64,000 nt of DNA from Trichoplax sp. H2 (Eukaryota): NCBI GenBank assembly GCA_003344405.1, contig NOWV01000125.1, forward strand, positions 1-64,000. The letters run 5' to 3'. Below are positions 107-57,300 of this stretch, in pieces. The notes under the pieces were generated by a model, which did not search any database, was not told the DNA's origin, and saw only the letters and a list, made by a program, of their open reading frames with translations. How positions within the stretch are numbered: the stretch's first letter is position 1; every line of letters begins with the position of its first letter. The position numbers and the translations under genes were made by a program.

Positions 107-2128
107 ACTATTGCAAGCCTAATGTGTACATCGAACGCCAATGGTTTCCAATGTTTCTGTCAGAAAGGATTCTATGGAAATCGGTGTCAATTTCGTTAGT
201 TTATGATCTAGTTTACGTGACTGATTGGTTTAGCTTCTTTTCGCCATTGCTAAAGTAGTAACTTAATTTATTTCAACTATTTTCAGATTACTGCGAACCA
301 AATCCCTGTAGAAATGGTGGCGGATGTGCCTACCTTAACAACGGTTATCGGTGCCTTTGTCGTGCAGGATATTATGGAAAGAATTGCGAAAATGGTAAGT
401 AAAAGATATTTCTTTCCAGATAAATATTTATAAACATTACTCTAAAGCTTTCTCATGTTTTCAAGATAATTGGAAAGAATTCTATCTGTTGCAATAAGTG
501 TCTTTGTTAATTGCTCACATCTAAATATAATTACTTCCACCAGCACCTTGTTTGCCTAACCCTTGTAAACATGGAATATGTCGAGTGAATAAAGATTACA
601 AGAGTTTTGTCTGTGTTTGTAACTTTGGTTACTACGGAAAAACTTGCCAAAATAGTAAGTTTTTTAAGATTCCTCTAGACAGATCTACACCAGTGCCATA
701 TCACCCTAATTTCATGACGGCTGCGATGGAAATTTTGATGTAATTTGGAATTGGCTAGATAGCGAGTAGGCTGACTATATATCAGCTAGTCATTAGGCAA
801 AGTGAATATTCAAATAATTTTTACTTATCTTTTGCGTATAAACTAGGACTAACTTTCTCTTTAGAGCAAATTGTTACTATAATTTATGCAATTTATTGCG
901 AAATAGTTTAGCTTGAAGACTAAGTAATCTTTAGTAATTTTCCAGAGCCGTTTAAAAGTGCTCCATTCTTCACTGATCGTTATTAAGCATACTCTACGCA
1001 TTGAATAGATACATGTTTTAATACCGTAGTTACTCAATGCTCTGCTAATTTTATGCATCGTGATTGGAATCATTCAACCACAGGTTTTTGTAATCCTAAT
1101 CCATGCAAAAATGGTGGCAGATGTATTGCCAGCAGGACTAGCTATATTTGTCAGTGTAAGGCTGGATTATATGGTCGTATTTGCGATAAAGGTATAATAA
1201 ATCAAAATTTTAAATTCACACTGAAGGTGAAATCTTTTGAATTAATGTTAGATTCAACAGTGAAAGATTAAATAATTTTGTAGTGATTTCAGCTAATTAC
1301 AGCAGTTTTTGTGTAGGTAATACAATGATAGCATGTACTGTAGAACTAGGGCTAAGAACCCGTACACTACAAATTTCAATCCTATGAACTCATAAATCTG
1401 ATTTATCATCGTCTTATACTAAGATTATTGTAAGCCTAATCCTTGCCGTCATGGAAAATGTATTGCTTTCGGTAACAAATTTCGATGCCAATGTAATCGC
1501 GGATTCTATGGACTTAAATGTGAAGAATTAATAAGTGGTAAGTTACCAGATCAATTTCATCTTATAGTTTATTAAAGTATTGATACTTTGCTGATATTTT
1601 TATGATCTAACAGAAGTAAGAAATTGCTAAACCAGTAGTATGCGAGGCTTAGTAGATTTAGCTAGTATTAATGTTTGTTAATGCAAAATGTTCTACCAGT
1701 ATCGCGCAGTGGATTATAAGATACCTGATAAGTCACTCATTTAATCTATCCTCATCACCTTATAAAAATGCAATACATGAGTAACAGGTTACTATTATAG
1801 TTACCCTCTACCGAAGTTATTGATGAATAATAATCCGCTTAGGCCTTGTCTAGGTGCCCGCTTTACTATACTAAATTATGTGATAGAATATTACTTGAAT
1901 TATACCAAAAGCAACATAAGTATATAAATTATTTTACTCATCTGTCAGAGGTATAAAATTGAGCTATTTATATTGGAAGTTTATAAAGCTGCTGTAAAAA
2001 GCTGATACATAATAATTTCTCTATTAAGATAGAGCAAAATATTCATCATCATGCCTTATATCATTTCTATACATATAACAATTTTAGACATACCATGCAT
2101 CAAGAAACCAATCAAGATTTGCCCGTAG
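107..2128 (+). CDS. 3' part of an EGF-repeat protein gene (5' end outside the window)
   Basis: Phase-1 single-EGF exons with AG/GT ends: 107-194 (frameshifted), 287-394 ([36 protein letters not shown]), 544-654, 1084-1191, 1424-1537. Probable short terminal exon 2088-2128 ([13 protein letters not shown]). Alternatively 1537 could splice in phase to 6300 and join the next gene. Confidence 0.75.
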
Positions 2129-32422: not shown

Positions 32423-34638
32423 TTTAATAATTCGAAGTAAGCATTCATACTTTGGAATAAATAATAATGCAGCAATTTAATATTATTTTTTCTGACGCAT
32501 TAAATAAAGTTTTATCTTTGATACTTTTATAATTAATGATACAAATGAAAGATTGTAATGGCTCCGAAATACTTTGTAAGACTATGTGTTCTAACGAAAA
32601 TACAAATGTACTGTATTAGTTTAGTCTTGATATCATTAATAGGACACAACTTGCTGATTGTGATTATAAAACTTTCCGTGATTAAAATGCAATATCATAC
32701 GAAAAAATTTGAACTGCTTCAAGAATAAATTTATTTTTGATTATAATTACTGCAAATATGAATTATAAACAAAACCTAGATAGTATAATTTAGTTTTGAT
32801 CATCTTTCTATCGCATATGATGGCCAATGAGAGTCAAGAACTGAAGCTGTTTAATAGCATTGTACGATAAATTTGCTCTTCCCCTACCTCTTGATGTAAT
32901 CGAATGGAAACTGGAATGAAAAGTAGTATCAGTACGAGAAAATACTCAGATGTCCAAGTATTCTTCCAGATAACACAGCTACGCTATTTCTTAATTAATT
33001 ATCAGCAAGATTACGATTTCTTGCAGTAGAATCTCAAAAATTTGAATCTTTAACAAACATTTAGCTTACTCATTTCTAGAATATAATTAATTAGCCTTTT
33101 TAAGATGCGATAGAATAATCCCGCGACTACATCATTTTCAGAATTAAATCTATTTCATGCAATATTGCTAATTTAAAAAGTGTGAATGATCGGCTCTAGC
33201 AGTAATATATAATTCAATCGAAATGATAATTTATTTATAAATTATGGAAATACACAATAAATATTCGATATAATTAGCAACAAGTTAGACAAATCCTGTT
33301 TCTGCCAAGTTAAATCGGCATTTATTACCATATTTTGAGGGCAATACTGCCCTTTCAAATATCACATTGAGCTATCTTGATTTTAATTTCTGTAATAAAG
33401 TATTTTGCATTTATCTAATAGTATTTAGCCATTAATAACAAGCTCCATGTTATGATTTTGATCTTAGATTATATTAGCATAAGAATACTATTATATAGTG
33501 CATAGTACAAAATAAAGAAATTTCTAAATTTAATCCTAAATTGAGATAATTATCTGTGATCCTTCACAATAACAGTTGGAGTATCTATGATTCCCTTATC
33601 CAGAAACTAAGCTAGCATACAAGAGAATTATAACATTACGATCTCATAAGTGGAATGCTTTATTCAAAATTAATCCTACATTGCAATACAAATACTGCAG
33701 TATCTTCTAAGATAGAAGAATAAAAGATATTTCTCCAATTTATTAAACTAAGCTGATTCTAAACTTTTCAAGAGCATCCATTAGCAGCTCGATGCATTAG
33801 CTTCAATTTAATTCATCATTTTTTGAATTTAAATTCAAACCTGGAGTAACTAGAGTACCAAAATTTGTGTTAAACTAAAAATAGGATTTTATTAACCATG
33901 ATTAAATTAAGCGCCGTTAAATAAGACCCTATTCTATTGACGGCGAGGGCAAATTTCGCTATCCAAATATACATAATCTTAAATATTAGCCGAGTAGAGC
34001 ATACTATTGAGATAAACACTTATTGTAGTTTCGGAAGATTGAGAGTTCGTCATAACAGCAAGTAATTACACCAGATTAATAGAAGAAAATAGTAATATTT
34101 ATAGTATGTGTTTGAAGAAACCGAATTTTGGCTACAATAATTAATAAACGACATGAAATACTGGAGTAGCTTAAGTAAAGTAGAAGACGTAAAGTGCACA
34201 AACTACAGCTCAGTTAAATACAACTAGCTAATGAAATTGATGCTTAAGAATTGTTATATTGTGGAAAGCACAACACGGGAGAATTAATTGTAAACGTGAA
34301 AGAATTTATTAGAAGAACTTACTTTTACGATAAGGTATTTCTACAATACAATCAAGCTAGAGCATAAATAGAATTCCGCGAATAAATTTAATAAAGATAA
34401 ATCACGAATACTTGGAATTACGCTACAATTTAGTGTAAGTTAGTTTTATTATTAATAGAATGTACCTGGTATACCATATGTGTTTACTATTAACTACTAC
34501 CTCATAATGAATAATATATACTTTTCATTACTAAAAAACAATTTGTTATTCAAATATATATATAATATAAAATAGAAATAAAATATACAGCATCCTAGCA
34601 ATGTTAAAGCTTATTGCGATTTAACAATTCGCAATTTA

Positions 34639-37600
34639 TCAGGCTTCAGAATTGATGCAATTAAGATGTTTCGCCAATGCTCGTTTTAGTTTATCTAAGT
34701 AATAAATATCTACTGATCTTGTTTTCGCTTTATATTCATGTAATGTTTCCATAATTTTAAATTCATCATCCTCTGTTAGTAAATCACCTTCATTATTTCG
34801 CTTGTACGGAAATATATATCTTTTATCTTTGATTAATTCGTTATACTCGTGTATAACTTGTAATGCGGAGAATTCTTCAGCAAAAATATCCTTCTGAACC
34901 AAGACTTCATTCATTGTATTAAAATACTTTCGACATATAATATGAGCATCGAGACTCTTCATCAAGAAGTGATATTGTTTTTCTTGTTTATCGCCGTACC
35001 ATATAGCAATACAATTTTGTTTCTTCGTTACATCGTATGCTAATCTTTCGTAATAACTATCTGATGTTATAACATCTCCAATATAATATAATTCTAATAT
35101 AGATCGCGCCATTTTTCCATGTGCTGTAGGAAATTGATTAAATAACTCCGTTGCATCTGTACCCAATACGAATTTTAACATTTCGTCGCCTCCTGGATGA
35201 AGATCAATATATTCACCGATATCGTATACACGACGGTCTATAACAATCCAACAACCGTTACGTCCTCCATTATGAGTAACAATATCGTATATCGATATAT
35301 TCATTTTACAATCGTTTGTTATAGGCTTATATACTTCGATTTTAATTCGATCAGTTGTTAACATTCTAATTAATTCTTTAATACCTATAGCCGATTTGAA
35401 TATTCTAATCATATCTCTATACAAAGTTGTAGGACCGCATATATAGATCAATGCATCTTCTTTACATAATTCGATTAATTTATTTTGACCTTCGCTCGAT
35501 GAAAAGTAACTCGTAACTCGACCGTTGTAAATATACGAATATTGCGATCCTTTCCACTTTTGTATATTATCAGCTGATAGACATAGCTTCGTATAATTTA
35601 CTGTGTCTGGAGCATCTTCTATAGTTCTACAACCAAAGTATAACAACATACGACGATTTTCATTCATCTTCTTATTACGATCGATAAACGATTGATATGG
35701 AGCTATACCCGAACCTATACCAATCATCACAATTGGTTTAGAACTATCTTGCGGAAGTCGGAAAGAAGAATTAATAGGGAATACATCAATTACTTGATGT
35801 TGATCGAATAGATTATCGATAGGCGCAAGTATCGGCGATACTTTACCGTTATCGATACGTTCGACAAGTAATTTAATATTATCGTTATCGAACGAGGCGA
35901 TGTTATACGTACGTGGCAGTTGCGGAGGAACTATAGATGGAGAGCCATGAGGTTTATTATTTGTAAAATCGGCGTATTTAATAAATATTTCTTTAGATAC
36001 TTTTCCGTTAGATATTCCAAAATGATTATGTACGAATTTTATCCACTCTTTTTCAGTAGTATCTTTAGTATGAATATCTAATACAAAATATTGGGGCGCA
36101 CTGTCATAATTTGTAATAGTATTCGGTATAAGTACACCAAGTTTATCACCCTCTTGATACGAAAATTTCTTATCGTAAATAGAAATGGTTACATATTGTA
36201 GAGTATTGCGCTGATTGAGATTAGCAGGAGTAGAATGAATCGTTGCACTAAATAATCGGTTAGTAAATTGGCGATCATCGATTGATTCGTTAAATTCTGT
36301 ATTAAGTTGTATATGAGCGCTCTTCGATTCTGTCTCTTGGTTAGTTACAGTAACAGTTCTATCTAGCTGAGTTACAAGAGATAAAACTCCTAATGCCTTG
36401 TTACGATGTATATCCAACATTCTATGATAAGAACGTTCAAATAAATCAAAAGTCTTATTTAATTGTGAATCGTTCAATGCTTTTATAAACTGTTTAGGAC
36501 TTCCAGTTTTCTCAAATCCTAATTTAAACGCTGTTAAAAATTGCCTATAAGATTTAGGTATTAGCCTATATCCATTACTGAACATTTTTCCAATGAGAGA
36601 CTTACGTATTCGATCAATAATTATATCGAAAACAGCGAAAATGGGATCAAATAACCCGCTAGTAGAATTTCCAATTAAGCTATTTTCTTCCGCTATAGCG
36701 AATAATTCTTCATCTTTAGCAGTGTACCAATCCAGGTTCGCTTCAGTTAAAAGATGAGATGTTTTCTCCTTTGATGGATCTAAAAGACAATTTGGAGCTA
36801 TAGGTCCAGTTTGACCTATATGTCTCCAGTGTGAAGGAATAATACTTATTTCAGCATAAGAATTAAATTTTGGCTCCGATAGTGTTTCGGATCCTCGGTT
36901 AGCTATTTCTATTAATTTGTTAAGATGGATTATAATTTCATCTTTATCGCCATTGTACATTGCAGATTGAAGATCTAATGCTGCATCGACGATATCATAG
37001 CATGCGTATCTAAGAGATGCAAGTGAGTATCCATGAAATGAAATTTCTGTACATGAACCTAAATCTTCGACATTAAAGAATGGAAATCTCATTTTTAAAT
37101 TATTAAATGAGAATCCTTCTTCGGGCCTTTTTAAATCAATATTATCTATATTTTGAGTATCATTTGTATTTGAAGGAATTCGATCTAATATTCTACAACA
37201 ATGTACCCAAGATTTTTGTAGATTATCCGGTAATTTAGGAATATCAAATCCATTAACCTTTCCATAGTAATTCCAATAAATTAAGGCTATATTAACAGCG
37301 GCTGAATGTAGAATAGTAATTATACTCTTAGGTAAACTTTCGATTTCGTCACCAATATTAGGTAACTGGCGTACCTTTTCTCGGAAACGCGGTGAATAAC
37401 TATTGGGAAGGTTTTTTGCAAATAGAAACAACGCTCTACATTTATCAGGTAATTGATCAGGATGTGGATCAGTAATTAATTTAGGCGGATAAAATCCATG
37501 ATAATATACATGACCTTCTGGTCTTGTTTCGGGATTTTGATCCCACATTTCTAGTAATTCTCTAGCAGGACTTGTTCTTGGGCTATGTTGATCATCGTTG

Positions 37601-37956
37601 CTAGATAAAATAGATTGTAATCGATGTCTATTGATAAGTAACCGAGAATTAATTGAATGTTGTAATTCTTGAGTATAAGCTTGTGCTTGAGTTTGATTTT
37701 TTGCTGTGTAGAATTGTGATTTACCTACTCTTATTAATACTTGTTGAGTTGATAATGCCTTGATTTGTTGACCGCATAATTTAGTGATAGCAGAGTGTAA
37801 TTGATTTCTATTCGAGTTTTGTGTAATGAGATAAATTTTGACTTTATTTCGATGTGAATCAAGGCTTTGTTGTACTGCTTTACTTCCAATAGCCTGAGCA
37901 ATGGTTCCTAATGTCTGTTCCATGATGGAAATTTCTTCCGCTTTGGCAGTCTCCAA
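34639..37956 (-). CDS. Fusion protein: IDO-like heme dioxygenase domain + FNR-family FAD/NAD(P)H oxidoreductase + cytochrome b5-like heme domain
   Basis: 1105-codon uninterrupted ORF. IDO-like motifs: HGFYPP, PKLPDNLQKSWVHCCRILDRIP, TSGLFDPIFAVFD, YRLIPKSYRQFL, DIHRNKALG. Reductase motifs: PRTYNIAS, GKVS, FRLPQDSSKPIVMIGIGSGIAPYQSF, LYFGCR, IYICGP, IEVY. b5 motifs: CWIVIDRRVYDIGEYIDLHPGG..GTDAT..AHG. Track start is TTG; first ATG is at 37923; the frame is open up to a possible acceptor at 38015. Confidence 0.85.
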   Translation of the reverse strand: METAKAEEISIMEQTLGTIAQAIGSKAVQQSLDSHRNKVKIYLITQNSNRNQLHSAITKLCGQQIKALSTQQVLIRVGKSQFYTAKNQTQAQAYTQELQHSINSRLLINRHRLQSILSSNDDQHSPRTSPARELLEMWDQNPETRPEGHVYYHGFYPPKLITDPHPDQLPDKCRALFLFAKNLPNSYSPRFREKVRQLPNIGDEIESLPKSIITILHSAAVNIALIYWNYYGKVNGFDIPKLPDNLQKSWVHCCRILDRIPSNTNDTQNIDNIDLKRPEEGFSFNNLKMRFPFFNVEDLGSCTEISFHGYSLASLRYACYDIVDAALDLQSAMYNGDKDEIIIHLNKLIEIANRGSETLSEPKFNSYAEISIIPSHWRHIGQTGPIAPNCLLDPSKEKTSHLLTEANLDWYTAKDEELFAIAEENSLIGNSTSGLFDPIFAVFDIIIDRIRKSLIGKMFSNGYRLIPKSYRQFLTAFKLGFEKTGSPKQFIKALNDSQLNKTFDLFERSYHRMLDIHRNKALGVLSLVTQLDRTVTVTNQETESKSAHIQLNTEFNESIDDRQFTNRLFSATIHSTPANLNQRNTLQYVTISIYDKKFSYQEGDKLGVLIPNTITNYDSAPQYFVLDIHTKDTTEKEWIKFVHNHFGISNGKVSKEIFIKYADFTNNKPHGSPSIVPPQLPRTYNIASFDNDNIKLLVERIDNGKVSPILAPIDNLFDQHQVIDVFPINSSFRLPQDSSKPIVMIGIGSGIAPYQSFIDRNKKMNENRRMLLYFGCRTIEDAPDTVNYTKLCLSADNIQKWKGSQYSYIYNGRVTSYFSSSEGQNKLIELCKEDALIYICGPTTLYRDMIRIFKSAIGIKELIRMLTTDRIKIEVYKPITNDCKMNISIYDIVTHNGGRNGCWIVIDRRVYDIGEYIDLHPGGDEMLKFVLGTDATELFNQFPTAHGKMARSILELYYIGDVITSDSYYERLAYDVTKKQNCIAIWYGDKQEKQYHFLMKSLDAHIICRKYFNTMNEVLVQKDIFAEEFSALQVIHEYNELIKDKRYIFPYKRNNEGDLLTEDDEFKIMETLHEYKAKTRSVDIYYLDKLKRALAKHLNCINSEA

Positions 37957-38721
37957 TGATGTTGATGAATACTTTGAATTAGTAGTTAAAAAGGTTTCAA
38001 GATTGATTTCTCTATCTACAGAATACTTTACGGTTTACAGTAAGTTTTGAAAATATCAATGATTCATTATTCCAGTACGGTATATTTCAAAACTTTTGAA
38101 TATATATATAATAATATTAGTTGACTATCTATCAAATGTGCTTCAAGTTACTTTATTCAAATTAGACTATAGTATGTTCATTAAGCATGTTTATTTTGAA
38201 AGATTTAAATGTGTCAAGAGTTGTGAAATTTTCTTAGTATAGTGTAGCAAACCCTTGATGTCTGCTAGTAGTAAACGTATACAATCGCCATACGAAACAA
38301 AATTGTATGGTACAGCGGGAGTCGTACTTGCAAAAGCGAATAATCTACAACTCTTTCATCTACCACTGACTAATAGTTTGTATTCGAAATTTCAAAGAAA
38401 TCAAGTTACTCAATACTGCAATAAAAACATCAACAGCCAATTGCTCAACGTTGTACTGATCTGTCTGCGTGTTATTGGAGCTCAATTTAAAGTTGATGGG
38501 ATGAAACGGGGTACCCGGGGAACTAATTTGCCAAGAGTTGCAATTAGACCTGAGAAATACGGTGGCTCACAATGTGCATCCTGGCCTAGGATGGGACGGA
38601 CGATCGTTTGACCGCCTGAAAAGTGGCGCAGGTGCAGTTACGAGCATCGCAGCAGAGTCACATGACAGCTGTGTCATGGTTATTCGTTCAGTAAGTAAAA
38701 ATGGCCGACCCTCCCGACACT

Positions 38722-39084: not shown

Positions 39085-39296
39085 CACGTGACAGGACTGT
39101 ACAGTGTACAGTGTACACTCAGTACAGTACAGGAATGCGAGTGTACTGTACAGTACAGTACTATCCGGTACCATTTTTACAGTACTGTACACTGTACAGT
39201 ACAAGGGACTACTGTGAAAGAGTACAGTACTATACAGTTTACACTGTACTGTACTGAACACTACTGGAACTACTATACTGTACACTGTACAGTATA
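39085..39296. repeat. Low-complexity TACAGT/ACTGTA palindromic motif array upstream of RPL10A
   Basis: Dense run of GTACAG, CTGTAC, TGTACA and CAGTAC words about 150-350 bp upstream of the TOP tract. Confidence 0.8.
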
Positions 39297-39436
39297 GCTA
39301 TCGCTACATTTACTGACCTATCCCTAGTTAATACAGTATAATAAAAGGTCCAATCCACGCGTGCGTATTTCACTCCCTTCGATACTGAGTCATTGACTTT
39401 CGGCAAGGTACTTGACTTGCTGTACCACGACTGTCG

Positions 39437-39479: not shown

Positions 39480-41316
39480 ATGAGGTAAGAAATCTTTCCT
39501 TCATCTCCTTCATCCTAATGAAATTAAATAGTTTAAGCCTAATTTTGAAGCAATTATTGGTTCATCTTGGCTTAAAATCCATTTTTTCTGTCATCAGATC
39601 GATTTAAGTTGATTTTGGATGTGATTGTAGTTGGCATTGCTGCATTCCATTATGGGTGTTAGACTGCTAGCTCATATATTACTATACTGTACAGTAGATC
39701 ATGGGTTTCTTGATCCAATAGCTGGGTAGATGGATCAATTTTTTCACTTACTCTTGCAAGTTACAACATGTTGTTATCCATAAGATAGACATCAACTGCA
39801 GAATAAACTTATCTATGTGTCCTATTTTTCTTGACTAATGTTCTATTGGCCTTGATGTTTCCTGTAGTAAAATTTCGCGCGATACGTTGTACGACTGTGT
39901 TCGTGATGTCCTTCAGCGCTCACAAGATAAGAAAAGAAATTTCTTGGAAACGGTGGAATTACAAGTTGCCTTGAAGAACTACGATCCGCAAAAGGACAAG
40001 CGTTTTAGCGGTACTGTCAAGTATGTATCGTAAATTACTTAACAGTTGTTGATCGCCTCGATCTTGCACAAAATAACGGTACAAGTCGATCATCGTGACC
40101 AATCAAATTGGTCATACGTTACTTGACTATCATCCTATCGATCAGTTTTTGTTTTTTATCCATGCGTTCCATGTTGTATATTCGAGTATAGCCTATGGAA
40201 TCCTTCTGGTCCAATATCGATTAGTTTATGAACACAAGAGCAGTTTGATGAGGACAGTGCTTAAACTAGAAACTAAAATAATAGTCTTGATATATACATG
40301 TAGAGTAGCAGCATGTGATGTCACATGCAATTTAATACTCGTCAATCTTTATCCTAAGTGAATGTACTCGAATGGAAGACATTTCCACGTTGTCATTGTA
40401 ATTTAAGTTGAAGCCATGAAATCCTAGTAGTTTGTCCAGTTTTCTGCGACCAATCTATATAGATAAACTACAGGCTACGATAATCCGTTGTCGAACAGAA
40501 TCGATGATTGTATTGAACACAATAAACGCAATACATTTGATACTTCCTATCAATCATGATGGTTGGCATTACTCGTCTGTCTTTGCAAATCTTAGTCTCA
40601 ATCTTGAAGGAGTTAGGAATTGACGCCATCATGGTTTACGATCCATGTGTGCTATAATTGTGCAAGGCATAATTAGATTCTTAATTTCGTCAGAGAAACA
40701 TGTATTACTGTACAGTACTTTTATTCTTTCTAAAGGCAGTATTCTTACGTAAATGTGGCAAAGCTCATTTTTCAATTTTAAGAATCATCGATCTGATGCA
40801 ATGTTACCTTTAATCTTCTTTAGATTGAGACATACGCCTCGGCCAAATCAAAAAGTATGTGTCTTTGGCGATGCTCACCATTGTGATGAAGCTAAGTCAA
40901 ATAATGTACCATCGATGGATGTCGACGCTTTGAAAAAATTGAATAAGAACAGAAAATTGATTAAAAAATTGGCTAAAAAATACGATGCATTTATTGCTTC
41001 TGAGAGTTTAATCAAACAAATACCTCGTATCATGGGACCTCAATTAAACAAGATTGGTAAATTTCCTACCATGTTGACTCACAACGATAACATGAATGCC
41101 AAGATTGAAGATGTCAAATGTACCATCAAGTTCCAAATGAAGAAAGTGTTATGTCTTGGTGTTGCCATTGGTAATGTTAGTATGTCGGAAGATGAATTGG
41201 CTGCCAATATCCATTTAGCCGTTAACTTTTTGGTATCATTATTGAAGAAAAATTGGCAAAACGTTCGCGCATTGTATATTAAAAGTTCGATGGGTAAATC
41301 CTATCGCTTATATTAG
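39480..41316 (+). CDS. RPL10A: 60S ribosomal protein L10a (uL1)
   Basis: Exons 39480-39484 (ATGAG|gtaag), 39868-40020 ([36 protein letters not shown]) and 40824-41316 (..[52 protein letters not shown]). Confidence 0.98.
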
Positions 41317-45354: not shown

Positions 45355-48300
45355 TTAGAAGCTGCGCGTAACGAATAGTGATATTAATGCAACATGCAAT
45401 AAAGCAAAATAAATAACAACCCAGATTCTATTCGTTGGTAAGTGCCGCAATTGCCGTCGGATATTACTAAAGCGATTAAAGCAAAATTCGCAAAGTCAAT
45501 TACAATTTTCTAGCATATTTAAAGGCTTAAAAAAATCATGATGTGCATAATATTAATGCAATAGTTACCGTTTCAATCGTGGCCAAGAGTTATATTTCAT
45601 TTGTTTCGTAACTTTTTGCACTGACATTAAAAGCAAGAATTGCTTAGGACTAAAAATCTTAATTGCATGATCATAATCTACAAAAGAAAACCAAAACAAA
45701 AGCATACATAGGCTTGCTTCAGGTGAGTCAATGATTTCCATTTCATTGTCATCTTCTTCATCCATGTTAATAAATACCTATAAAATTTCATAAAATTTCT
45801 GGTTTATTACCTCGTAGAATCGAATTATCAAATTTTGATATTGAGCGGTATAAATCAACGCGGAAACATCGCAATTAAAACTTTGTTCCGAGAGCGCTCA
45901 CCTCTCGATTCTCAAATGAAGGCGTAACATAAACAGCCAGCTCATCCTTAGTTTTCTGAAGTGATTCTTCAGCATTTATCCTTCTATCTTGTTCCATCTG
46001 TAAACGTTCCTAAAATAATTTGATAGATTAAAGAATATAGCACATACACCTTAATTAATTTTTTGGAATGGAGCTTATTACTTGTAGTTCATCCATCTTC
46101 CGTAGCAGATCATTCTGCATTTCTGTATACTGAAGCCTATGCAAGTATAGTGCAATTCAAAGGGAATCAGCGACCGAATCACAACAAGTTAAGCAAGGCA
46201 TATGCCATGGTACGATAGAATGTTCTACCTTTCATTTACTAATGACGCATCTGGTAATAGTTTAACTTGACCATCAATTATATCTGTTAGAGAAAAAGTA
46301 TAGAAATTTTAATAGACTATCGCATTAGGACATTTCTTGTTACTAAGTCACCTTACATGTGAAGAGGCTAGTCAAGTAACACTTAAAGAACGAACCTTTA
46401 GCAACAGAGTTTCTTGGCTCTCCACTGTCTAACGGGCTCAAGGATCCTTCCTAACGTTTACAGAAATTTCAAATAACAATCAGTTTGTAGGAAGCTAAAG
46501 TATAACAGTATATTAATATAGGAAAAACAAATGTTATTTTAACTTACAACACTTTTTGAAGTTATAATAGCTTCATTAATCATAATAGAGTTATCAGGCT
46601 CGCTGCTTCCATTCAAGTTACCAAAAAGAGCATATTTAATTCATTAATAACAAAATTATGTTGAAAGTTTAATGAAGAACTCTACCTTAACTTCTGTTGA
46701 CTTTTAGCACTTTCATAATTCTTTAATAACGATAGAGCCTAGATAAAGATTTAAATCGAACTAGAATTAAAGATCTATATCTACAGCACCTAAAAATGGC
46801 AAATACTTACCTCAATCTCAGCTACTAATCCTTCAATTCTTTCATTTTGATAATCAACAATTCCTTGCATACGATCGCATTCGTCAATTTTCTGCTTGCA
46901 AATCTCTTCAGCGTCAACTAGCTGCTTCTTGAGGTCTTCGTTTGATTGATTCAATGAAGCCAAATTACTACGATGTTGATCTTTACCAATTTCTTGGTTA
47001 CTCTCAATATGAGCCATAACCGTATTAACCTGCTGCTGTAAGTGGTCTCGTTCTTCTAATACAAGTTGATAATCATTCTGCAATACATCATATCGATCTA
47101 TATGTGAAACATTATTAGAGTTTTCCTGCTCTAGTAAGAACTTTAGAGATGAAATTTCCCTACGTAGTCCGGACTCAACAGCAGCTTTCTGATGTAGCTG
47201 TGTTATCATTTCTTCCCTTTCCATAACATTCTGACGGAGATTTTCGTTAAGCTCTTGAAACTGATTATGCAAATTATCTACTTCCTTTTGTAATAACTTG
47301 TTTTCTGACAAGTAATCATTAATTTTAACCATATATTCATCTCTTTCTAAAAGAATTCTTGATTTTTCATCAATATGAAAGGCATTTTCTTGTTGAACAG
47401 TTTCAAAAGAATTCTCTAATAGCGAATACTTAGATTGTTCGTCTTGTAATTGACTTAATAATCTGGAATTCTCTTCCAAAATTCGTTCACAGCTGGCATT
47501 TAGTACCTCTAGATCGCACCTTTGCTGTACTAGCTCATCCGTGAGTGTTTTATTTTCTTTGTAATACTTATCATTGGAAACTCCTATTTTGCTAATCTCA
47601 GAATTCTTACCGTCAACCTCCGATTTTAATGTCTCCGATAAGTCTCGATAATTACTTATTTGATCCTCTAGATTATTAATTTTATTATCTTTTATAGAAA
47701 GCTCGTCGACTACACTATCATATCTGGCACTTAAGCTTCGATAGTTATTTTCTAACTTCTTCATTTTATCCTGGCATTCATTATAGCGATTATCAAGTTC
47801 CGTATATTGCAACTTAAAACGTTTTTCGGATTCATCAACATCCTTTTTTAGATTTTGGTACGAATTCTTCGAGTCAGACATCTCCTTTTGGTATTTATCT
47901 CTATCTTTACGAATAGAATTCAATTCTTGTAGCAATTCGTTATTGGATTCAACAAGAACCTGAAGTTTAGGTAACAAACTTTTCTCATTTGCTGTAATTT
48001 CAGCTTTTGCTTCACTGATATGATCGTAACATTCATCATCCTTCTTTGTCAATTGGTTACTATCCGAAGTTGTCTGAATTAATTCCCGTTCTAACATACA
48101 ATCTTGCATAGCTGGATTGTGAATATCATTGGTGTACTCTGATTTCGACTTTCGTGACTCATACCAGCTTTCTAGAACAGCTCTTGCTTCAGTAAGTGAT
48201 GCGTCCGTCTCTTTAGTGGAAGAAAGTTGAGCGGCTAATCCTTCATTTCGGGACCGAAGGTGTTGAATTTCTTTTTTACATTCTTTTAAATCAGTTGATA

Positions 48301-51300
48301 ATGCAATAAATTTTTGCTTAGCAGTATTCAGTCTTGAGGATAGTCGTTTATTCTCGTTACCTAAGTGATTATTTTCCTCTTGTATTTCATTTAACTGACA
48401 CAATTTAGCCCGCTTATCTTCAATCTCTATTGCTAATGATTCTTGATCCTTCAGTCCTTTTTCAACTTGTTGCTCATAAGAAATTAATTTGTCGGAGTAA
48501 CTAGATGACTGATCTTGCAGTCTTTGCAAGTCGGTACGACATTCTTCCAACTCTAATAGAGTGTTATTGTGATTTTTACGCAGCGCTGCCATCTCGCTAT
48601 CATACTTAGACCGTATTTCATCATAATCTTTTCCCAACATATGATACGTCATTGACAAATTTTGAATGTCGTCTACTTTAGCACTTAGTTCCAATTTCAA
48701 CTCTTCAATAACCAGATCTCTTCCATTAACTACTTCATTCAATTTAATGATTTCTTCTTTATAATTTTCAACTTCATTACGATATTCCTCTAAATTGCTA
48801 TCGTGTTTGGCTTTAAGTAATTGTATTTCGGACACAACGCTGTCATAATCTGTGTGTACAGCCTGTAATTCAGCATCCTTTAATTGCATTAATTTGGTCA
48901 TATTGGCTTGTTCTTCTTTTATCTCACATATTATATCTTTTAAATTGGTATTCTCAGCATTTCTCTCTACTAAATCATTAGCAATCGCATCTCGTTCTGT
49001 AGACGTTTTTTCTAATAAACTGTCTTTTTCTTTCATCATGCTATCAAATTGACCCTTTTCTATTTGGAACATTTCTATTTGTTTATCCTGAGTTTCGGTT
49101 AGATGAGCACGGCCATTTTCTAATTCATCTATCTTCATTTGTAAATTGCTATTCTTATTTTTAAATTCTTCAGCTTTAGCTTTATGTAGCTGCAATTCCT
49201 CCTTGAGCGAACTAAACATTTGCTTAGCTTTACGAAGTTTAATCGCTAACTGCTCCTTTTCGTTGGTTATTCCTTCTATTTTAGCTTCATATTCTTTACA
49301 CTGAAGTAGTTTTTCTTGTAAGGCATCAATTTCTCTAGCTATTAACTCTTTTTGTTGATGCTGTACCTCTAATTCACTTTGCAAATTGTGAACATTGTCC
49401 TGTTGTTCATTACGCTCTCTAACAGTATCGTTTACTTGTTTCTGTAATCCAGATACCTCATCCATTGAAGCTGACAACTGTGCTTCTAATTCTGTTACCT
49501 TATTTTGGAAACTTGATGACATATCATTAAACGAACATTCGAAATCAGCTTTTGAAAGTTCTAATCGAGATATAACGCTATCATAGTCTTTACGCAGAAC
49601 TTCAAGTTCTGAAACTTTTGCATTTATTTCGTGGACCGTACTATTTTGTTTCTCTTCCAATTTATGTATCATATTTGTCAAACTTTTATTCTCAAGCTCC
49701 TTTTCTTCCAAACTTTTCGCCACACTGCTTCGCTCCACTAGAGAGCTTTCTAATAATTCATCTTTTTCTTTTATTACACTCTCAATTTGACCCTTTTCGT
49801 TTTCAAATTCTTCCAGTTGCTTTGCTTGAGTATCAATAACTTGAGTATATTTACTTTCCAAGACGTCTACTCTAGATTGTAGATCAATGTTTTCCTTCCT
49901 ATATCCTTCAGTTTCAGATTTTTGATGTATTAACTCTTTCTTAAGATTACTGAGGACTTGCTTAGCCTTATTTAATTTATTGACTAACTGCTCATTTTCT
50001 TTGGTTAAATTATCAAACTTTTCTGTGTGATCTTTATATTCTAGCAATTTCTCCTGAAATAAATCGTTTTCTTTGGCCAGCAATTCCTTTTCATTACGTT
50101 CTATTTCGATTCCTCTTTCTAAATTTAATATTTGCTCATGCAAGCATTTGCGACTTGCAACAACATCATCTGCCTCCTGTCGTAATTTAGATATTTCGGA
50201 TACTGAATCGTGTAACTGATTTTGCAATTCTGCTACCTGAATTTGCAAACTGGACGACATATTTTCCAATGAAGTTTCATGAGCACTTTTTGATAACTCA
50301 AACTGAGATAAAACATTTTTGTAATCGACACGTAGAGCTTCCAGTTCCGAATCTTTCACTTTTATTTGATTTGTCGTAGTCTTTTGCTCTTCTTCCAATC
50401 CTTGCAGCGTAGTTGTCAAACGAGCACTTTCTGTACATTTCTCAGCTAGATCGTTAGTAATTCTATCACGTTCTAATATAGATTTTTCCAACAAGTCGTC
50501 CTTTTCCTTTAAAAGACAATCTAAACAGGCCTTTTCATTTTGAAACTCATCTGCTTGCTTATTTTGAGTATCAATAAGACGTGCGCAATCTGATTCCAAG
50601 AAATCTATCCTAGATTGTAGACTAGTATTCTTGTCTTTAAATTCTTCCAACTCAGATTTCTTATGTTGCAACTCCTTCTTTAGGGAATTAAGCATTTGTT
50701 TGGCTTTACTTAATTTAATAACTAGTTGTTCATTTTCACTAGTCGTATGAGCTAATTTTGCTTCATAGTCTTTATACTCTAGTAATTTAATTTGAAAAGT
50801 ATCATTTTCCTTTGCTAACAATTCCTTTTCTTGACATTCAGCTTCTATCTCTTTGTGTAGAATACAATTTCGATCTTGTAGCTCGTCACGCTCTCTTACA
50901 GTATCATCTAGTTTCTGACATAATGTAGATATTTCATCCACTGATTCCGATAGTTGGTTTTCTACTTTAGCTAGTTTATGTTGAAGGTCAGCAGATAAAT
51001 TCTTTATCGAAGAATCATAATCAGCTTGTGACAATTCCAATGACTGCAAAGCGTGACGATAGTTTGATTGTACAGTGTCAAATTCAGAATCCTTATGCTC
51101 TAATCTCACTCTCATATCTTCTAATTCTTCTTCCATCTTTCTTAGCGAATGCTCTAGATTACCATTCGCTATACGATTCTCTTCCAAAGTAGTATTAATA
51201 TTGTCTCTTTCAGTCATAGATTTTTCGAGCAAATTATCTTTTTCTCTAATGATGCCATTAAGGTGTTCTTTTTCATTTTCAAACTCTAGCATCCGATTAC

Positions 51301-54300
51301 GTTTATCATCACTAATGCTAGCACATTCATCTTCTAGGCATTCAATCTTATGATTAAACTTTATATTTTCATCTTTGTATTCTTCGATTTCAGATTTCTG
51401 ATGTTGTAGCTCTTTTTTAAGAGAGTTTATCAATTGTTTAGCTTTGTTAAATTTACTTAATACTACTTCCTTCTCATTAGTTACTTCATTCAGTTTTATT
51501 TCGTACTCTTCTTGTTTCACTAATTTTTCTTGTAGAGAGTTTGTTTTTTCCACCAACAACTTATTGTTGTCAAGTTGTGCTTTTAGCTTGTCCTCGAAAT
51601 TACAAATATCTTCTTGTAATGCATCATGTCGCACACGAGTCTGTAGAAATTGTTCTTTAGTGTCAAGTAATTCATCTATAGTGGTGAAGAGCAGAACTTC
51701 CAACCGCATTACTCCAGACTCAAGTTTACCAGCTTGGTAAGTGTCCGCATGTGAATGTGTCTTTTCCTCTGTTATCTTTGAATCACTAGCATTTGCAGCT
51801 GGCAATACGTCCTCAGCAGCATCTAAATCTGCCGCAGTCTTTGCAACGGATAGAAATTGGTTGCCTTCCGTTACTGATTCATTGTCACTGGATTTGGACA
51901 CAAAGTTTGCTATCTTAACCTTGTGATTATCGAGTTTAGAAAATATTACATCGATTTTTTCCTCAGCTATTGTAATAACTTTTTGAAATATCTCCAGTTG
52001 CTGCGTTTGTTCTGATAAATGTCCTTCCAAAACAGCGATCTTTTCATCTTTTAATATGATATCATCCTTGTATTCAGTTAGTTTTTTATTTATAACTTTC
52101 AACTCATTATCAAGTACTTTTTTCTCTTCTATTATCTCACTCGTTTCAATGATTTGTTCTTTTATCTTATTGCTATCATTTTCAGCTGCTTCCAGTTGGT
52201 GGTTTAAGTAAATAATCTTGTCATCTTTTTCCTTCAACAAGTTAACATTTTCATTCAATAGTCTTTCTTTTTCTTCAAGTGCATCTTGAGCTCTCAGTAA
52301 TTCTAAATTTCCAGCTTCATTCTCCTTTGCTAAAATATTACGTTCATTTCTTAACTTAGATTTTAAGTCTTCAACTTCCGAAGTTTTCTCCTTCAATTCT
52401 ACTTTCAAGCATGTGATAATATCATCAGCTTGTGAAATCGTTTTTATCTTTTCATCAGCTTCATGTCCTAATGTAATAACTTCATACGTCTTCGCGCTTA
52501 ATTCTTTCTCTATATCCTTCAGTCGTTCCTTTAGACTTTCAATATGCTCTGTCGAATGGCGATCCCGCTCGTCTAATTCCTTGTTTACTTTACTTATTTT
52601 TACAAGTTCAGAAGATATCTTTTCAAAATCATCCCTGACACTTGGTAACTCGATATTAGCTTTCTGGTCTAGCTCAGCGAGTAAATCATTCTTTGAGCGT
52701 AATTCGACTGTTAGTAATTCTTGTTCCTTGATACTATTGAAAATGGAATTATTCCTTTCAGCTAATACTGACTCAAATTCAGCCCTTTTATCAATCAATT
52801 CTTGCTTCATGGAGGTGATCAATTCTTTCGCAGATTGAAGTTCTTCCAAAGCCTTTAATTCAGCTGTATTACTATTTTCTAACGCTTTTTTGATTTCAGA
52901 ATGTTTCTGTCGTAAAGAACTTAATTCAGATTTAGTATCACTTAGTTGCTGCTGCGTTGTGACTAATAATGATTCTTTAATGGACAAAGTATCTGTTACT
53001 TCATATTGGTAACTTGAATAACGTAATTTAACGCTTTCAAGTTCTTTTAATTGAAGGGTGAGATCATCTTCTAATGCGAAAATTCTTTCATTACGCTTTT
53101 CTAGCTGTTGTTGTAACGATGCCACTTCCTCTTCCATATCATTCAGTTGTTCAAAAAGTGATTGCATTCTTTCTGTTGACACTTTCTTTTCCATCATGTA
53201 GTTGTCTTTCAAAGAAAACAACTTATCATCAGCTTTCCTAAGGTTGATTTCTTTTTCGTCAACTGCAACACTCAGTTCATGGATAGAAATCTCATTTTTA
53301 GTTATTTCTGATTTTAACATTTCAATAGACTCTTCTTGAACTTTTACTTGGGTAGTTAAGCGTTCAATTTCAGTGTTTAAATTATTTCTTTCCGTTATAA
53401 GAACTTCAAGTTCAGATAGCTTGCCAGAATTATCTGAAGTTAGTAGAGCAATTTGGTCTGATAACGATGAAATTTTATACTCTCTTTCCTTACATGTCTC
53501 AGCCATTCTCAACAACTCATTCTCTAACTTAGTTATTACTCCTTGTTTTTCATTTACTTCCACTGTTAGTACATTTAATTTCTGCAAGTTTTGCTCAAAT
53601 TTTTCTTTTAAAGCACATAAACTTTGATTGGATGTATCTAATTCCAATCTTAACTCTACTAATACTCCCGAGTTGCTATCATTGTCATGCTTTAAAGAGT
53701 CTATCTCACAATTAAGTTCTTGCTTTGATAATACCAACTTATTGATTTCATCCTCGCAAACATTAATACGTTGTTTCCGCGCATTCAATTCGGTTAGTCT
53801 TTCCTCGGCTAGAGTTTTTAAATCGCGAACCAGTTTTGAATTTTCATCATTTAAGTTGTCGGCGGATGCTAGACTACTGTGCAAAGTTGAGATGATGCTA
53901 TCTTTCTCAGACACAATTAAAATTTTATCATTCAATTCATTTTCTAGAAGGTTGAATTTTTCTTTCATGGATGATAAATCAGATCTTACTACTGACTCTT
54001 GCTGATTAATTCTCTCATGTTCTCGTAGTAACTGATCAATACGCGACTTCTGTTCAACCTCTACTTCTCCTAATTTCTCTATTTTCCGTTCTAAAATAAT
54101 TTTCTCTTGATAATTGCTATCTATGACATCATTTAATCTTTTTACTTCAGTACATTGCTTTTCGATATCATTTTTATATTCCTTTGATTTTTCTTCCAAT
54201 TCACAGATATATTCATTTTTGTCTAAAAGCTCTCTTGATAATTCGGATAGTTCATGCTTATAGTTATCAGCTTCTGTCTTAAATTTGTTTTGTTTTAGAT

Positions 54301-57300
54301 TTATATCTTTCCTTACGTTTGTCAATAAAGTATTAACATTTTCGTAATTAAGTCGGAGACTCTCAGCATCTTGTTCAACATCGAAAATCTTCTGTCGCAA
54401 CTGAGATATTGTCGTGTCTTTCAGATTCATCTCTTCCTTAAATTTATTCCTTTCCGCAACAATTTCATCTTTCGTCTTGATAATTGATTCTATCTTGCTG
54501 CTACTATCTTCACTAAGAGAATCAATCTGTACTTGAAATGCCTTAATTTCTAAATTTTTGTCTTCGATCTCTTGACTTAATTCGTTTATTTCAGCAGTTT
54601 TCTGTTTTAAGGAGCCCTGCAATCGTTGAATTATGCTGTCTTTATCCACACTTGCAGCTTCAAGCGCTTCTAATTTAATTGTAATTTCCTTTAGTTGAAC
54701 TTGTAATTCTTCACCTTTTTCAACAGATGATTTTAGTTCATGCTTTAACTGTTTCACCGAGTCTTCCTTTGTTTTCATTACATCAGCAAGTATGTCGTTT
54801 TTTTCGCTCAAATTTTTTTCCAATGAAGCAATTATAAGACTTTTTTCGTCCAACGATTTATCCATTTTAGTTTGCAATTCATTGAGTTGGCACTTTAATA
54901 AGCCAGATTCGGCGAAAGATTCTTCAATAGAACACTGCAATTTCTCGCAATCGCCTTCCTTTACTTGAAGGGCTTCTGTTATCTGAACCACTAAGCTATC
55001 TTTCGATTCTAATAATTGATGTAAATTCGAAATTTCACTTTCTTTTTCCTCATTCTGATCGCATAAATCTAATACAGCCTGTTCTTTTTCAGCAATTTTC
55101 TGCTGGTAATCTTGAATAGCTAACTCACTTTCAGCAAGGGCAGTATTTCCACTTTGTAACTGATCATTAATTGAATTGACTGTTAGAGTTAATTCTTCGA
55201 TTACGTTATCCTTTTGTATTAATTTCTCTTCGCACTCTTGCAATCTTTGCTCAAGTTGATAACGACGATCTTTGGAGCTCTCTATATCTAACCGTGACGA
55301 TGCTAACTGACTGTCGAGATTATTCTTTGCTTCGTAAAGAGAATTTATTTCCTCCTTTAACTTATCTCTTTCGTTTGATAAAGCCCTCAAACTTTCCTCT
55401 AAATTACGATTTTTTTCCTCCAACATACTAATCTTATCTGTTAAGAGATGATTACAAGATTCTGCACCGGCTATACTTTGCTTATAGCTGGAGATAGCGC
55501 TAGATAATTCCTTAATTGTTGCAAGTCCTTGATTTCGTTCGTCAATAAGTGATCTTACTTTTATATTCCAATCATCCAGCTTTCGAGAGTCTAGATCTTT
55601 TTCATATTCTAATTCGGAAACTTTTTCCTTTAATTTAGACATCTCTTCTTGATAACCCAATAATCTCTCATCAAGAAGTGTTAAACTACTTTTAGCCTTC
55701 TGAAATTGACTTTCTAAAGATGTCTTATTTGATTCAATATTTTGTAGTTTACTATCTCGTTCAATCAGTAGCATTTTTGTTTCTTCATAATTATTCTTAA
55801 TATTATCCATCTCCGCCGCAATCGCTATATTTTTCTTTTTATATGCTTCGTTTTCAGCTGATAATTTATCTAGCGCTTCGTCAGTTGACACTATCTTAGC
55901 TTTTGCGTCTTGTAGACTATTTTGTGAAGTTTCTATATTCCCCTTTAAATCATCGCGTTCAGCACAAAGTTCATTGTACTTTTGTTGCAGGATCATTTTA
56001 TCGTCATAATTTTTTGAAAGATCGCCCTGAATATTATCTAATCGAGAACGATTATCTCGATACTCTGTATCAAGTGAGTGATAAGAGCGCTCAAGATTTT
56101 CATATTTATTTTCTAATAATGATAAATTAGAATTTACTCTCCTGCGTTCTTCTTGTTCTTGCAATAAAATGTCTTGGTGTTGCTGGAGTTGTTGCTTAAG
56201 ATTTTGATTACCTTCAACTAAGGCGTTATTTTCCCTAACAAAATACTCGTATTCATCTTTAAGTCGTTCATTTTCATCAATGGCATTATCCCTCTGCTCT
56301 TGCATCAACATTAAGGAATTATTCCACTCGTTTATATCGGATGCAGTTATTTGTTCATTTGGATTTGTAGAGAATTCATTTTGCAAACTTTCAATTTCCT
56401 CTCTTAATTGAGTAACTTGTGATCTAAGAAACAAATTTTCTTCTAGAGCAGCACTTCTTTCTTCAGTAACTTCATCCAGTTGACCAGTAATTTCAACAAT
56501 TTTACTGCTAAATTCACGAATTATGGCATCTGCTGTAGCATCAAAATAAAGTGAATCTTCACGTGATTTTGTTTTTAAATTCATATCATCATCTTCTTCT
56601 TTCGTACTATCACCACGATCTTTAGATATTAAAGTATCATGAAGTTTAGATAATTCTGTAACTAATCGCTTTCGTTCATCTTCGCTATTTACTAAATTAT
56701 CAGTAATTTCGTGATTGGCCAATTCTAAATCAGCTATTTTCTGTTTCAATCCTTCAAATTCCGAATTAATGTCGTTTTCATCGTTCGCTGATTTTGCTAA
56801 ACTACTAGTAACCTTTTCATTTTCAGACTGTAAATCTTTAATTTTATTTTGTAGCTCTTCGTTCTATAAATATTGAGAATGTATTAGCTAAAATTTTTCC
56901 AACGTCATTTTATGGTATTAATATTATAACTTACTTTTGATTTCGCTTGTGCTCGGAGCTTGATAAACTTCGCATTACCCCTTTTAACTTCTAATTCTAA
57001 TTCTGCAATTTTTTCTTTAAACGTTAATATGTCAGCATTATCTTTCGTACCGTCGTTAATATTTTCAGGCTGATCTATAATAAATATATGATCCATAGAT
57101 TTATTAGCTTGAAAGGTATGCTTCCAGCTTGATACTACTATACGGAAAGTATTTTCTATACCATTATTTTTTGAATTGGAGGTCGAATTATCCGCTTCCA
57201 TCTTACTCATCTTCATATCATTTAGTTCTTTCTGTAGCATTTCAATGATTTTATCTTTAGCATTAAGCATTTCAGACAATTCAACAGTTCGATCTTCAAG

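Follow-up and report, generated by a model that had tools for sequence, protein, structure and literature searches.

An IDO-like domain joined to a reductase module and cytochrome b5: a predicted self-reducing heme protein encoded by Trichoplax sp. H2

Here, we describe a gene of the animal Trichoplax sp. H2, located at 34639-37956 on the minus strand of a 64,000-nucleotide stretch of contig NOWV01000125.1 (the window), whose product joins a predicted, very divergent IDO-like heme domain, a FAD/NAD(P)H reductase module, a cytochrome b5 (b5) domain and a C-terminal tail on one polypeptide. We consider it likely that this is a real, transcribed protein that works as a self-reducing heme oxygenase. 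Each of its parts belongs to a known kind. What is undescribed is the variant that they form together, the use of b5 instead of FMN behind a FAD domain of the diflavin type, and the occurrence of such a protein in an animal. In the published full-text literature covered, which leaves most subscription journals outside, we found no paper reporting a fusion of an IDO domain with b5 or with a reductase, in line with an earlier interpretation of the window made from its letters (the sequence-only reading), which knew of no characterised animal enzyme with this architecture.

The gene is a single intact frame of 1105 codons plus the stop. Its earliest in-frame ATG, codon 12 at 37923, is the probable start, and the public database copy (P0002, 1094 aa) begins there. 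Because 9.2% of the codons in the remaining two sense frames are stops (204 of 2208), a run of 1105 stop-free codons lies far beyond chance, and the frame first noticed in the sequence-only reading is confirmed as real. Moreover, each motif cited there for an ordered series of IDO-like, reductase and b5 parts was found at its cited place (Table 1).

Domain identities and order

The assignment of the N-terminal half is carried by its homology to proteins with clear IDO domains. An exhaustive phmmer search with aa 12-580 against 1,835,955,588 representative proteins returned two matches at E<=0.001, P0003 (753 aa, 5.1e-8) and P0004 (1067 aa, 7.5e-8), which match Pfam IDO at E 7e-31 and 1.5e-23, respectively; the former combines IDO with Cyt-b5, and the latter carries IDO, FAD_binding_1, NAD_binding_1 and Cyt-b5. 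Six relatives match Pfam IDO, with E values of 7e-31 to 8e-34 reported for them. When the protein was compared by hhalign with six relatives, the two aligned with a probability of 100 (E 7.2e-45, 850 columns), aa 129-1058 of the Trichoplax protein running against positions 4-1007 of the family so that the whole protein is colinear with it. Likewise, a hidden Markov model (HMM) of the N-terminal domains of 13 relatives scored the Trichoplax domain at 105.4 bits (E 1.2e-34 for one sequence) in two stretches, aa 129-377 and 431-562, against 2.1 bits for the top of 300 shuffled sequences. Both this HMM and the hhalign family profile were built without the Trichoplax protein. Searched against the PDB, the family profile found human IDO1 (1.9e-36) and IDO2 (1e-32). 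Additionally, a language-model atlas placed the domain nearest to IDO and PrnB clusters, with weak scores of 0.81-0.83 that fall below the level counting as more than a lead. Word-indexed searches with the domain or a three-row alignment returned only its own database copy and, being limited by word sharing and candidate caps, say nothing on absence. These profile and pairwise comparisons support the N-terminal half as a very divergent IDO relative, homologous to proteins with clear Pfam IDO domains.

Residues around the predicted heme follow the same pattern. His517, a candidate proximal heme ligand, is invariant in 14 of 14 sequences and takes the position of IDO1 His346, named as the proximal ligand in PMC6072487. 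This correspondence was obtained by gapless extension, the HMMER alignment ending ten residues before His517, and the ends of the structural alignment agree with it (model residue 406 pairs with IDO1 360, hence model 392 with 346). The IDO1 chain offset in the profile alignment (+3) was checked against residues named in the same paper, namely Tyr126, Cys129, Val130, Phe163, Phe164, Ser167, Phe226, Phe227, Arg231, Ala264 and Asp274. Furthermore, Ser433-Gly434 aligns with IDO1 Ser263-Ala264, Phe440 with Phe270, and Asp444 with Asp274, which PMC6072487 implicates in heme binding. The two features on which the sequence-only reading turned, an IDO/TDO-superfamily fold and a heme-ligating histidine, are thus both present in prediction, the fold matching IDO1 and IDO2 and His517 mapping to His346. 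At the positions of IDO1 Phe226/Phe227 and Arg231, the protein has Glu369/Ile370 and an invariant Pro374, in a segment whose alignment is less certain. Heme binding by the IDO-like domain is therefore plausible, since His517, the loop and Asp444 are kept, and tryptophan as a substrate is not implied, since the tryptophan-binding residues are not conserved. Tryptophan/indole oxidation, as put forward earlier, consequently does not stand as settled chemistry; with Phe226, Phe227 and Arg231 not conserved, tryptophan oxidation stays one candidate.

The predicted structure is consistent with this assignment. An AlphaFold2 model of aa 12-580 from the single sequence was unusable, with a predicted local distance difference test (pLDDT) score of 36.3, and a model from a 14-row alignment reached a mean pLDDT of 65.4 and a predicted template modelling score of 0.68. 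Its low confidence lies mainly in residues 238-308 (aa 363-433, pLDDT <50), which include a protein-specific insertion, and at the C-terminal end. Foldseek returned 157 matches at E<=0.001, of which those listed (ranks 1-50) are without exception human IDO1, at probability 1.00, target TM 0.66-0.75 and E values from 2.9e-9, and all 50 entries listed by VIA-align are IDO1 or IDO2 (Z 30.0, root-mean-square deviation 2.9 A over 331 residues). Identity to IDO1 in the structural matches is 14-18%. The IDO fold that the sequence-only reading had proposed to check by modelling is accordingly predicted, in the two-domain, all-helical form of IDO1/IDO2. PrnB is absent among the structural matches listed by Foldseek and VIA-align, which leaves room for a relationship with it.

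The middle of the protein matches Pfam NAD_binding_1 (PF00175) above the cut-off (aa 744-848, E 2.6e-7), and its PDB matches are the FAD/NADPH domains of P450 BM3, methionine synthase reductase and cytochrome P450 reductase. Among NCBIfam models, cysJ (sulfite reductase flavoprotein) matches in part (E 8e-16), a flavohaemoprotein model matches weakly (aa 681-855, E 3e-7), and further FNR-type reductases give partial matches as well. Pfam FAD_binding_1 is found in the relatives, and at about 1e-37 the family profile picks up both sulfite reductase flavoprotein and P450 reductase; the module is therefore assigned to the FAD/NADPH half of the diflavin-reductase type. GIGSGIAP, LYFGCR, YICGP and the terminal aromatic Tyr876 are kept. 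The proposed FAD/NAD(P)H reductase therefore holds as a module, through NAD_binding_1 and these motifs, but not as a classical b5 reductase, being of the diflavin type of P450 reductase and sulfite reductase. As the sequence-only reading had also noted, an FMN/flavodoxin domain is missing, no such Pfam family being found at E<=1 in the Trichoplax protein and none in the relatives scanned, so the protein is not itself a diflavin reductase. Its b5 domain is clear (Pfam PF00173, aa 894-962, E 1e-17; PDB b5 matches down to 1.4e-11) and keeps both axial histidines, His920 in HPGG and His946 in T-A-H-G, just as first described. The order from IDO-like domain through FAD/NAD(P)H module to b5, also part of that description, recurs in at least 15 other proteins.

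Fused relatives and the animal locus

The architecture belongs to a recurrent family. A search seeded with P0004 found three further proteins with IDO, FAD_binding_1, NAD_binding_1 and Cyt-b5, four of four matches being fused. In a prokaryote scan with one genome per species, 67 stretches matched and 13 encode a relative (L001-L013), in a metagenome-assembled genome (MAG) of Coxiellaceae, mostly in Chloroflexota MAGs (Anaerolineae, Aggregatilineales), and in a Polyangiaceae MAG, Candidatus Hadersleviella and an unclassified bacterium. The frame is unbroken, at 828-1314 aa, in 10 of the 13 loci and split in the other three (L010, L012 and L013), which may reflect sequencing errors, pseudogenes or genuine split forms; at L010, a 316-aa frame with IDO alone comes before a second, distinct frame of 825 aa. 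Metagenome contigs yielded four more loci from 388 pattern matches. On viral contigs, neither the Trichoplax protein nor the family alignment found a relative (112 pattern matches, 0 confirmed), so a giant-virus source is not supported. Members appear under source names such as 'hypothetical protein' or 'Cytochrome-b5 reductase', and include the Chloroflexota MAG protein MBI1258594.1 and, among eukaryotes, GAQ86515.1 (P0007) of the streptophyte alga Klebsormidium nitens. The algal protein also carries an EF-hand pair inside its reductase module (aa 655-720). EF-hand NADPH oxidases have calcium-controlled electron flow, and by analogy the pair suggests that calcium may control electron flow here. 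P0003, encoded on a 13-kb Logan contig, has the IDO-like and b5 domains without a reductase and ends in a hydrophobic C-terminal tail. Together with P0004, it stands closest to the Trichoplax protein by phmmer, and its branch is likewise very long.

The Trichoplax protein is 18-27% identical to its fusion relatives and 24-27% to the bacterial ones. It shares their domain order and invariant residues and is colinear with them over aa 129-1058, but differs in having 125 extra N-terminal residues and a 50-aa insertion, in lacking the connecting subdomain and the N-W pocket motif, and in being encoded by an animal. In a quick tree it joins P0004 and the Coxiellaceae locus (SH-aLRT 97); no donor is named, because the Trichoplax branch is very long and long branches meet in this tree. 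Five of eight bacterial loci examined, all in Chloroflexota (L002, L003, L008, L009 and L010), have conserved same-strand genes directly upstream, namely a HpcH/HpaI-type aldolase followed by a CBS-pair protein, with RidA between them in two loci. The CBS-pair protein has about 275 aa, with the CBS pair C-terminal and the N-terminal half unassigned. Overall, the bacterial gene context offers no clear substrate clue.

The gene itself is integrated in the animal chromosome. Other long frames in the window encode Ig, EGF, laminin G and zona pellucida domains, an L1p/L10e-family ribosomal protein and La domains; the GC content of the gene is 0.327, its base composition is like that of its neighbours, and its codon use is host-like (relative synonymous codon usage, r 0.78 against the neighbouring 3319-aa frame). 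The stretch bearing the gene is present in 19 of 21 listed sequencing runs from 8 studies, three of these runs being recorded as RNA and the rest guessed to be RNA. One contig spans 33733-38550 in run X1 at depth 40.2 and another spans 33901-38472 in run X3 at depth 17.5; the units next to the gene differ widely from this in depth (272 and 151 to one side, 919 and 190 to the other), and cover between units is nil or nearly so. Such a pattern suggests that an intronless mRNA of about 4.6-4.8 kb, with long untranslated regions, was assembled from a transcriptome; contigs cannot reveal its strand or true ends. RNA-labelled runs contain gene fragments at 95-99% identity, and the uncovered parts in two of them (X11 and X12) carry no weight. 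Taken together, the gene appears to be transcribed. Contigs from a related organism differ from the frame at eight sites, three synonymous and five non-synonymous, too few to judge constraint or selection, and show no frame break in the covered parts.

A separate feature of the contigs concerns 37284-37382, where a joint inside the frame skips 97 bases in all four runs compared. The skipped segment ends in GG..CT on the plus strand, which fits no canonical intron on either strand, and is not a multiple of three; the shorter side of the joint holds 23 letters only, and no repeat explaining the skip was found.

Proposed electron chain and competing explanations

In the proposed mechanism, NAD(P)H would pass a hydride to FAD, FAD would release single electrons to the b5 heme, and b5 would deliver them to an IDO-type heme bound through His517. 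This heme, made or kept ferrous, would bind O2 and oxidise an aromatic substrate, probably an indole-like one. What the analysis shows is which domains are present and in what order, that the cofactor-binding residues are conserved, that the gene is part of an animal chromosome, and that transcript-like contigs cover it; the bound cofactors, the path of the electrons, the substrate and a dioxygenase type of reaction are inferred. PMC4191572 proposes cytochrome b5 as the physiological reductant of IDO and states that, even when acting as a dioxygenase, IDO autoxidises and has to be reduced again. The recurrent fusion implies a coupling of b5 with the IDO domain.

Several observations weigh against a self-reducing oxygenase of this kind. 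A full fused reductase exceeds what a strict tryptophan dioxygenase needs, because N-formylkynurenine formation takes no electrons per turnover, although the IDO monooxygenase route needs re-reduction of the iron, according to PMC12921851. An electron-consuming reaction is thus a serious rival: the architecture and electron chain would be the same, and the IDO-type heme would consume electrons each turnover in a reaction other than tryptophan dioxygenation, such as indole or aromatic monooxygenation or, as in flavohaemoglobin, nitric oxide (NO) dioxygenation, with the reductase as a stoichiometric partner in the manner of P450 BM3. All full-length members seen carry the entire NAD(P)H-to-heme chain in 1:1 fusion, and Phe226, Phe227 and Arg231 are not conserved in the relatives either, which have Glu/Asp, Thr/His/Tyr and Pro at these positions. 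Among the 34 of 71 listed flanking frames scanned at eight bacterial loci, none proved to belong to the kynurenine pathway; at five of these loci, the aldolase/CBS-pair set stands upstream. The IDO/TDO superfamily, moreover, includes the non-dioxygenases MarE and PrnB, as PMC11904535 and PMC11791213 describe. However, the fusion could equally serve a dioxygenase, since IDO autoxidises and b5 is its proposed reductant; the neighbourhood evidence comes from the scanned bacterial frames and not from the animal. All told, we regard an obligately electron-consuming reaction as possible but somewhat unlikely.

Further points of this kind come from the divergence of the animal copy. The Pfam IDO model (PF01231) has no match in it at E<=1, so that the IDO assignment of the sequence-only reading stands through hhalign and HMM homology to bona fide IDO domains but not through the Pfam model, and Pfam FAD_binding_1 (PF00667) finds no match either. 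As the alignment behind the model consists of IDO relatives, the structural match confirms the sequence evidence rather than standing apart from it. Where the relatives keep D-L-x-x-x-N-W in the segment of IDO1 Tyr126/Cys129/Val130, the Trichoplax protein has N-I-D-N-I-D-L-K-R-P, with about nine residues deleted. The helical connecting subdomain of the relatives is deleted as well, the FAD motif, R-x-Y-S-x-x-S in its usual form, reads R-T-Y-N-I-A-S, with Asn where 12 of 12 reductase-bearing relatives have Ser, and the Trichoplax branch in the quick tree measures 6.5 changes per column. One of the non-synonymous differences from the related organism falls on Asp337, invariant in a seven-row alignment. 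A fast-evolving animal copy that had lost the ancestral catalysis, be it a decaying gene or one whose product is now a redox or heme-binding protein without catalysis or with a new role, would account for these changes, as well as for the 50-residue insertion near the active-site loop and the five non-synonymous differences out of eight. Yet 1105 codons remain open against a rate of 9.2% stops out of frame; His517, Asp444, Ser433-Gly434, GIGSGIAP, the terminal aromatic and both b5 histidines are kept; and transcript-like contigs occur in several studies without a frame-breaking difference in the covered parts. Loss of catalysis is accordingly improbable in our estimation. Bacterial contamination or an assembly artefact was also considered, given that the gene is intronless, that the quick tree places it nearest to P0004 and a Coxiellaceae MAG, and that most family members found are bacterial. 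It was rejected, and its chance appears close to nil: the gene lies inside a 9.66-Mb contig between animal genes, its base composition and codon use match those of its neighbours, contigs from independent studies hold the gene plus its flanks, and identity with any bacterial relative is only 24-27%.

A self-reducing IDO-type oxygenase would have several counterparts among known systems. With human IDO1 and IDO2, the Trichoplax domain shares the predicted two-domain helical heme fold (Z 30), and it keeps the proximal histidine, the Asp274 equivalent and the Ser-Gly/Ala loop. In the human system, b5 and the reductase are separate proteins and the reductase is of the CYB5R type, a family reportedly covered by a published review, whereas the Trichoplax protein has all partners on one polypeptide and a reductase of the diflavin FAD type. 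P450 BM3 likewise joins a heme oxygenase to a homologous FAD/NADPH module, but its heme domain has the P450 fold and a Cys ligand in place of the IDO fold and His ligand, and its carrier is FMN, whereas the intermediate carrier here would be the b5 heme, no flavodoxin family being present. Flavohaemoglobin, Ncb5or/CYB5R4 and assimilatory nitrate reductase also wire an NAD(P)H-FAD module to heme in one chain, with a globin, CS or molybdenum domain where the Trichoplax protein has an IDO-like terminal domain. PrnB and MarE are divergent IDO/TDO-superfamily enzymes whose chemistry is other than tryptophan dioxygenation, and the abstracts of PMC11904535 and PMC11791213 report no fused redox partners for them, in contrast to the protein described here.

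The cellular reductant of IDO has long been debated, with cytochrome b5 as the current candidate, as outlined in PMC4191572. A fusion of IDO, b5 and reductase that recurs in bacteria of several phyla, a streptophyte alga and an animal constitutes genomic evidence for an IDO-b5 partnership, and a single-chain system makes the electron path directly measurable. Such a protein is also a possible new template for heme oxygenase catalysis free of added reductant, as P450 BM3 has been for P450s. Precomputed Pfam families on the public copy comprise the reductase and b5 only, so its IDO-like nature is invisible to routine annotation. For the animal, the gene adds an unannotated predicted heme enzyme, which might act on an indole or aromatic signal. 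Being intronless and having mostly bacterial relatives, the gene is a candidate for transfer between kingdoms. A more far-reaching proposal, which we consider speculative and unlikely, is that the gene is of bacterial descent, possibly from an intracellular Coxiellaceae-like bacterium, and that its product joins P450 BM3 and flavohaemoglobin as a third kind of self-sufficient heme oxygenase, its IDO-fold heme drawing on an in-built NAD(P)H-FAD-b5 chain. Instead of dioxygenating tryptophan, such an enzyme would consume electrons, for example to monooxygenate an indole-type signal or to dioxygenate NO, and the fusion would serve as a 'Rosetta stone' for b5 as the physiological reductant of IDO-type enzymes.

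Feature coordinates and other observations in the window

Table 1. Motifs, domains and transcript-like unit of the gene (positions in the window; residues counted from the first codon of the open frame).
Feature	Window position	Residues	Strand	Remark
Probable intronless mRNA	33733..38550		strand not shown by contigs (gene -)	single colinear contigs in two runs of different studies
N-terminal extension, Q/N/S-rich	37582..37923	aa 12-125	-	no aligned residues in any relative; no significant Pfam family
Divergent IDO-like heme domain (predicted)	36259..37581	aa 126-566	-	homology, HMM, model
HGFYPP	about 37500	aa 153-158	-	
Protein-specific insertion, precedes SG loop	36667..36819	about aa 380-430	-	gap in all relatives; low model confidence
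STSGLFDPIF	about 36660	aa 431-440	-	
Conserved loop and helix S433-G434...P438.F440...D444	36625..36660		-	aligns with IDO1 Ser263-Ala264...Phe270...Asp274
IPKSYRQFL		aa 466-474	-	
DIHRNK	His517 codon 36406-36408	aa 515-520	-	candidate proximal heme ligand
FAD/NAD(P)H reductase module, diflavin-reductase type	35317..36249	aa about 570-880	-	without FMN domain and connecting subdomain
RTYNIAS		aa 682-688	-	FAD motif
NAD_binding_1 match	35413..35727	aa 744-848	-	Pfam; spans GIGSGIAP, LYFGCR, YICGP
GIGSGIAP		aa 746-753	-	
LYFGCR		aa 772-777	-	
YICGP		aa 838-842	-	
IEVYK		aa 873-877	-	Tyr876 is the terminal aromatic in E-V-Y
Cytochrome b5 heme domain	35071..35277	aa 894-962	-	Pfam; His920 and His946
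HPGGD		aa 920-924	-	b5 His920
TAHGK		aa 944-948	-	b5 His946
C-terminal helical tail	34642..35061	aa 966-1105	-	FPYKR motif; partly common to bacterial relatives; no known family

Outside the gene, many contigs of four runs end at 39100-39300 or join there with unrelated letters. This interval contains GTACTGTAC-like short repeats and is probably a dispersed or tandem repeat; it lies just upstream of the highly covered gene for the L1p/L10e-family ribosomal protein, where depth rises to 18,900 at 39779-40000. A second very long intronless frame, of 3319 aa, occupies 46790-56749 on the minus strand, and its sole match is a weak one to a CENP-F leucine-zipper family (E 3e-5, below the cut-off). 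Finally, this frame lies in a region of strong strand asymmetry, where the GC skew is about -0.2 and the AT skew about -0.25 from 48 to 58 kb.

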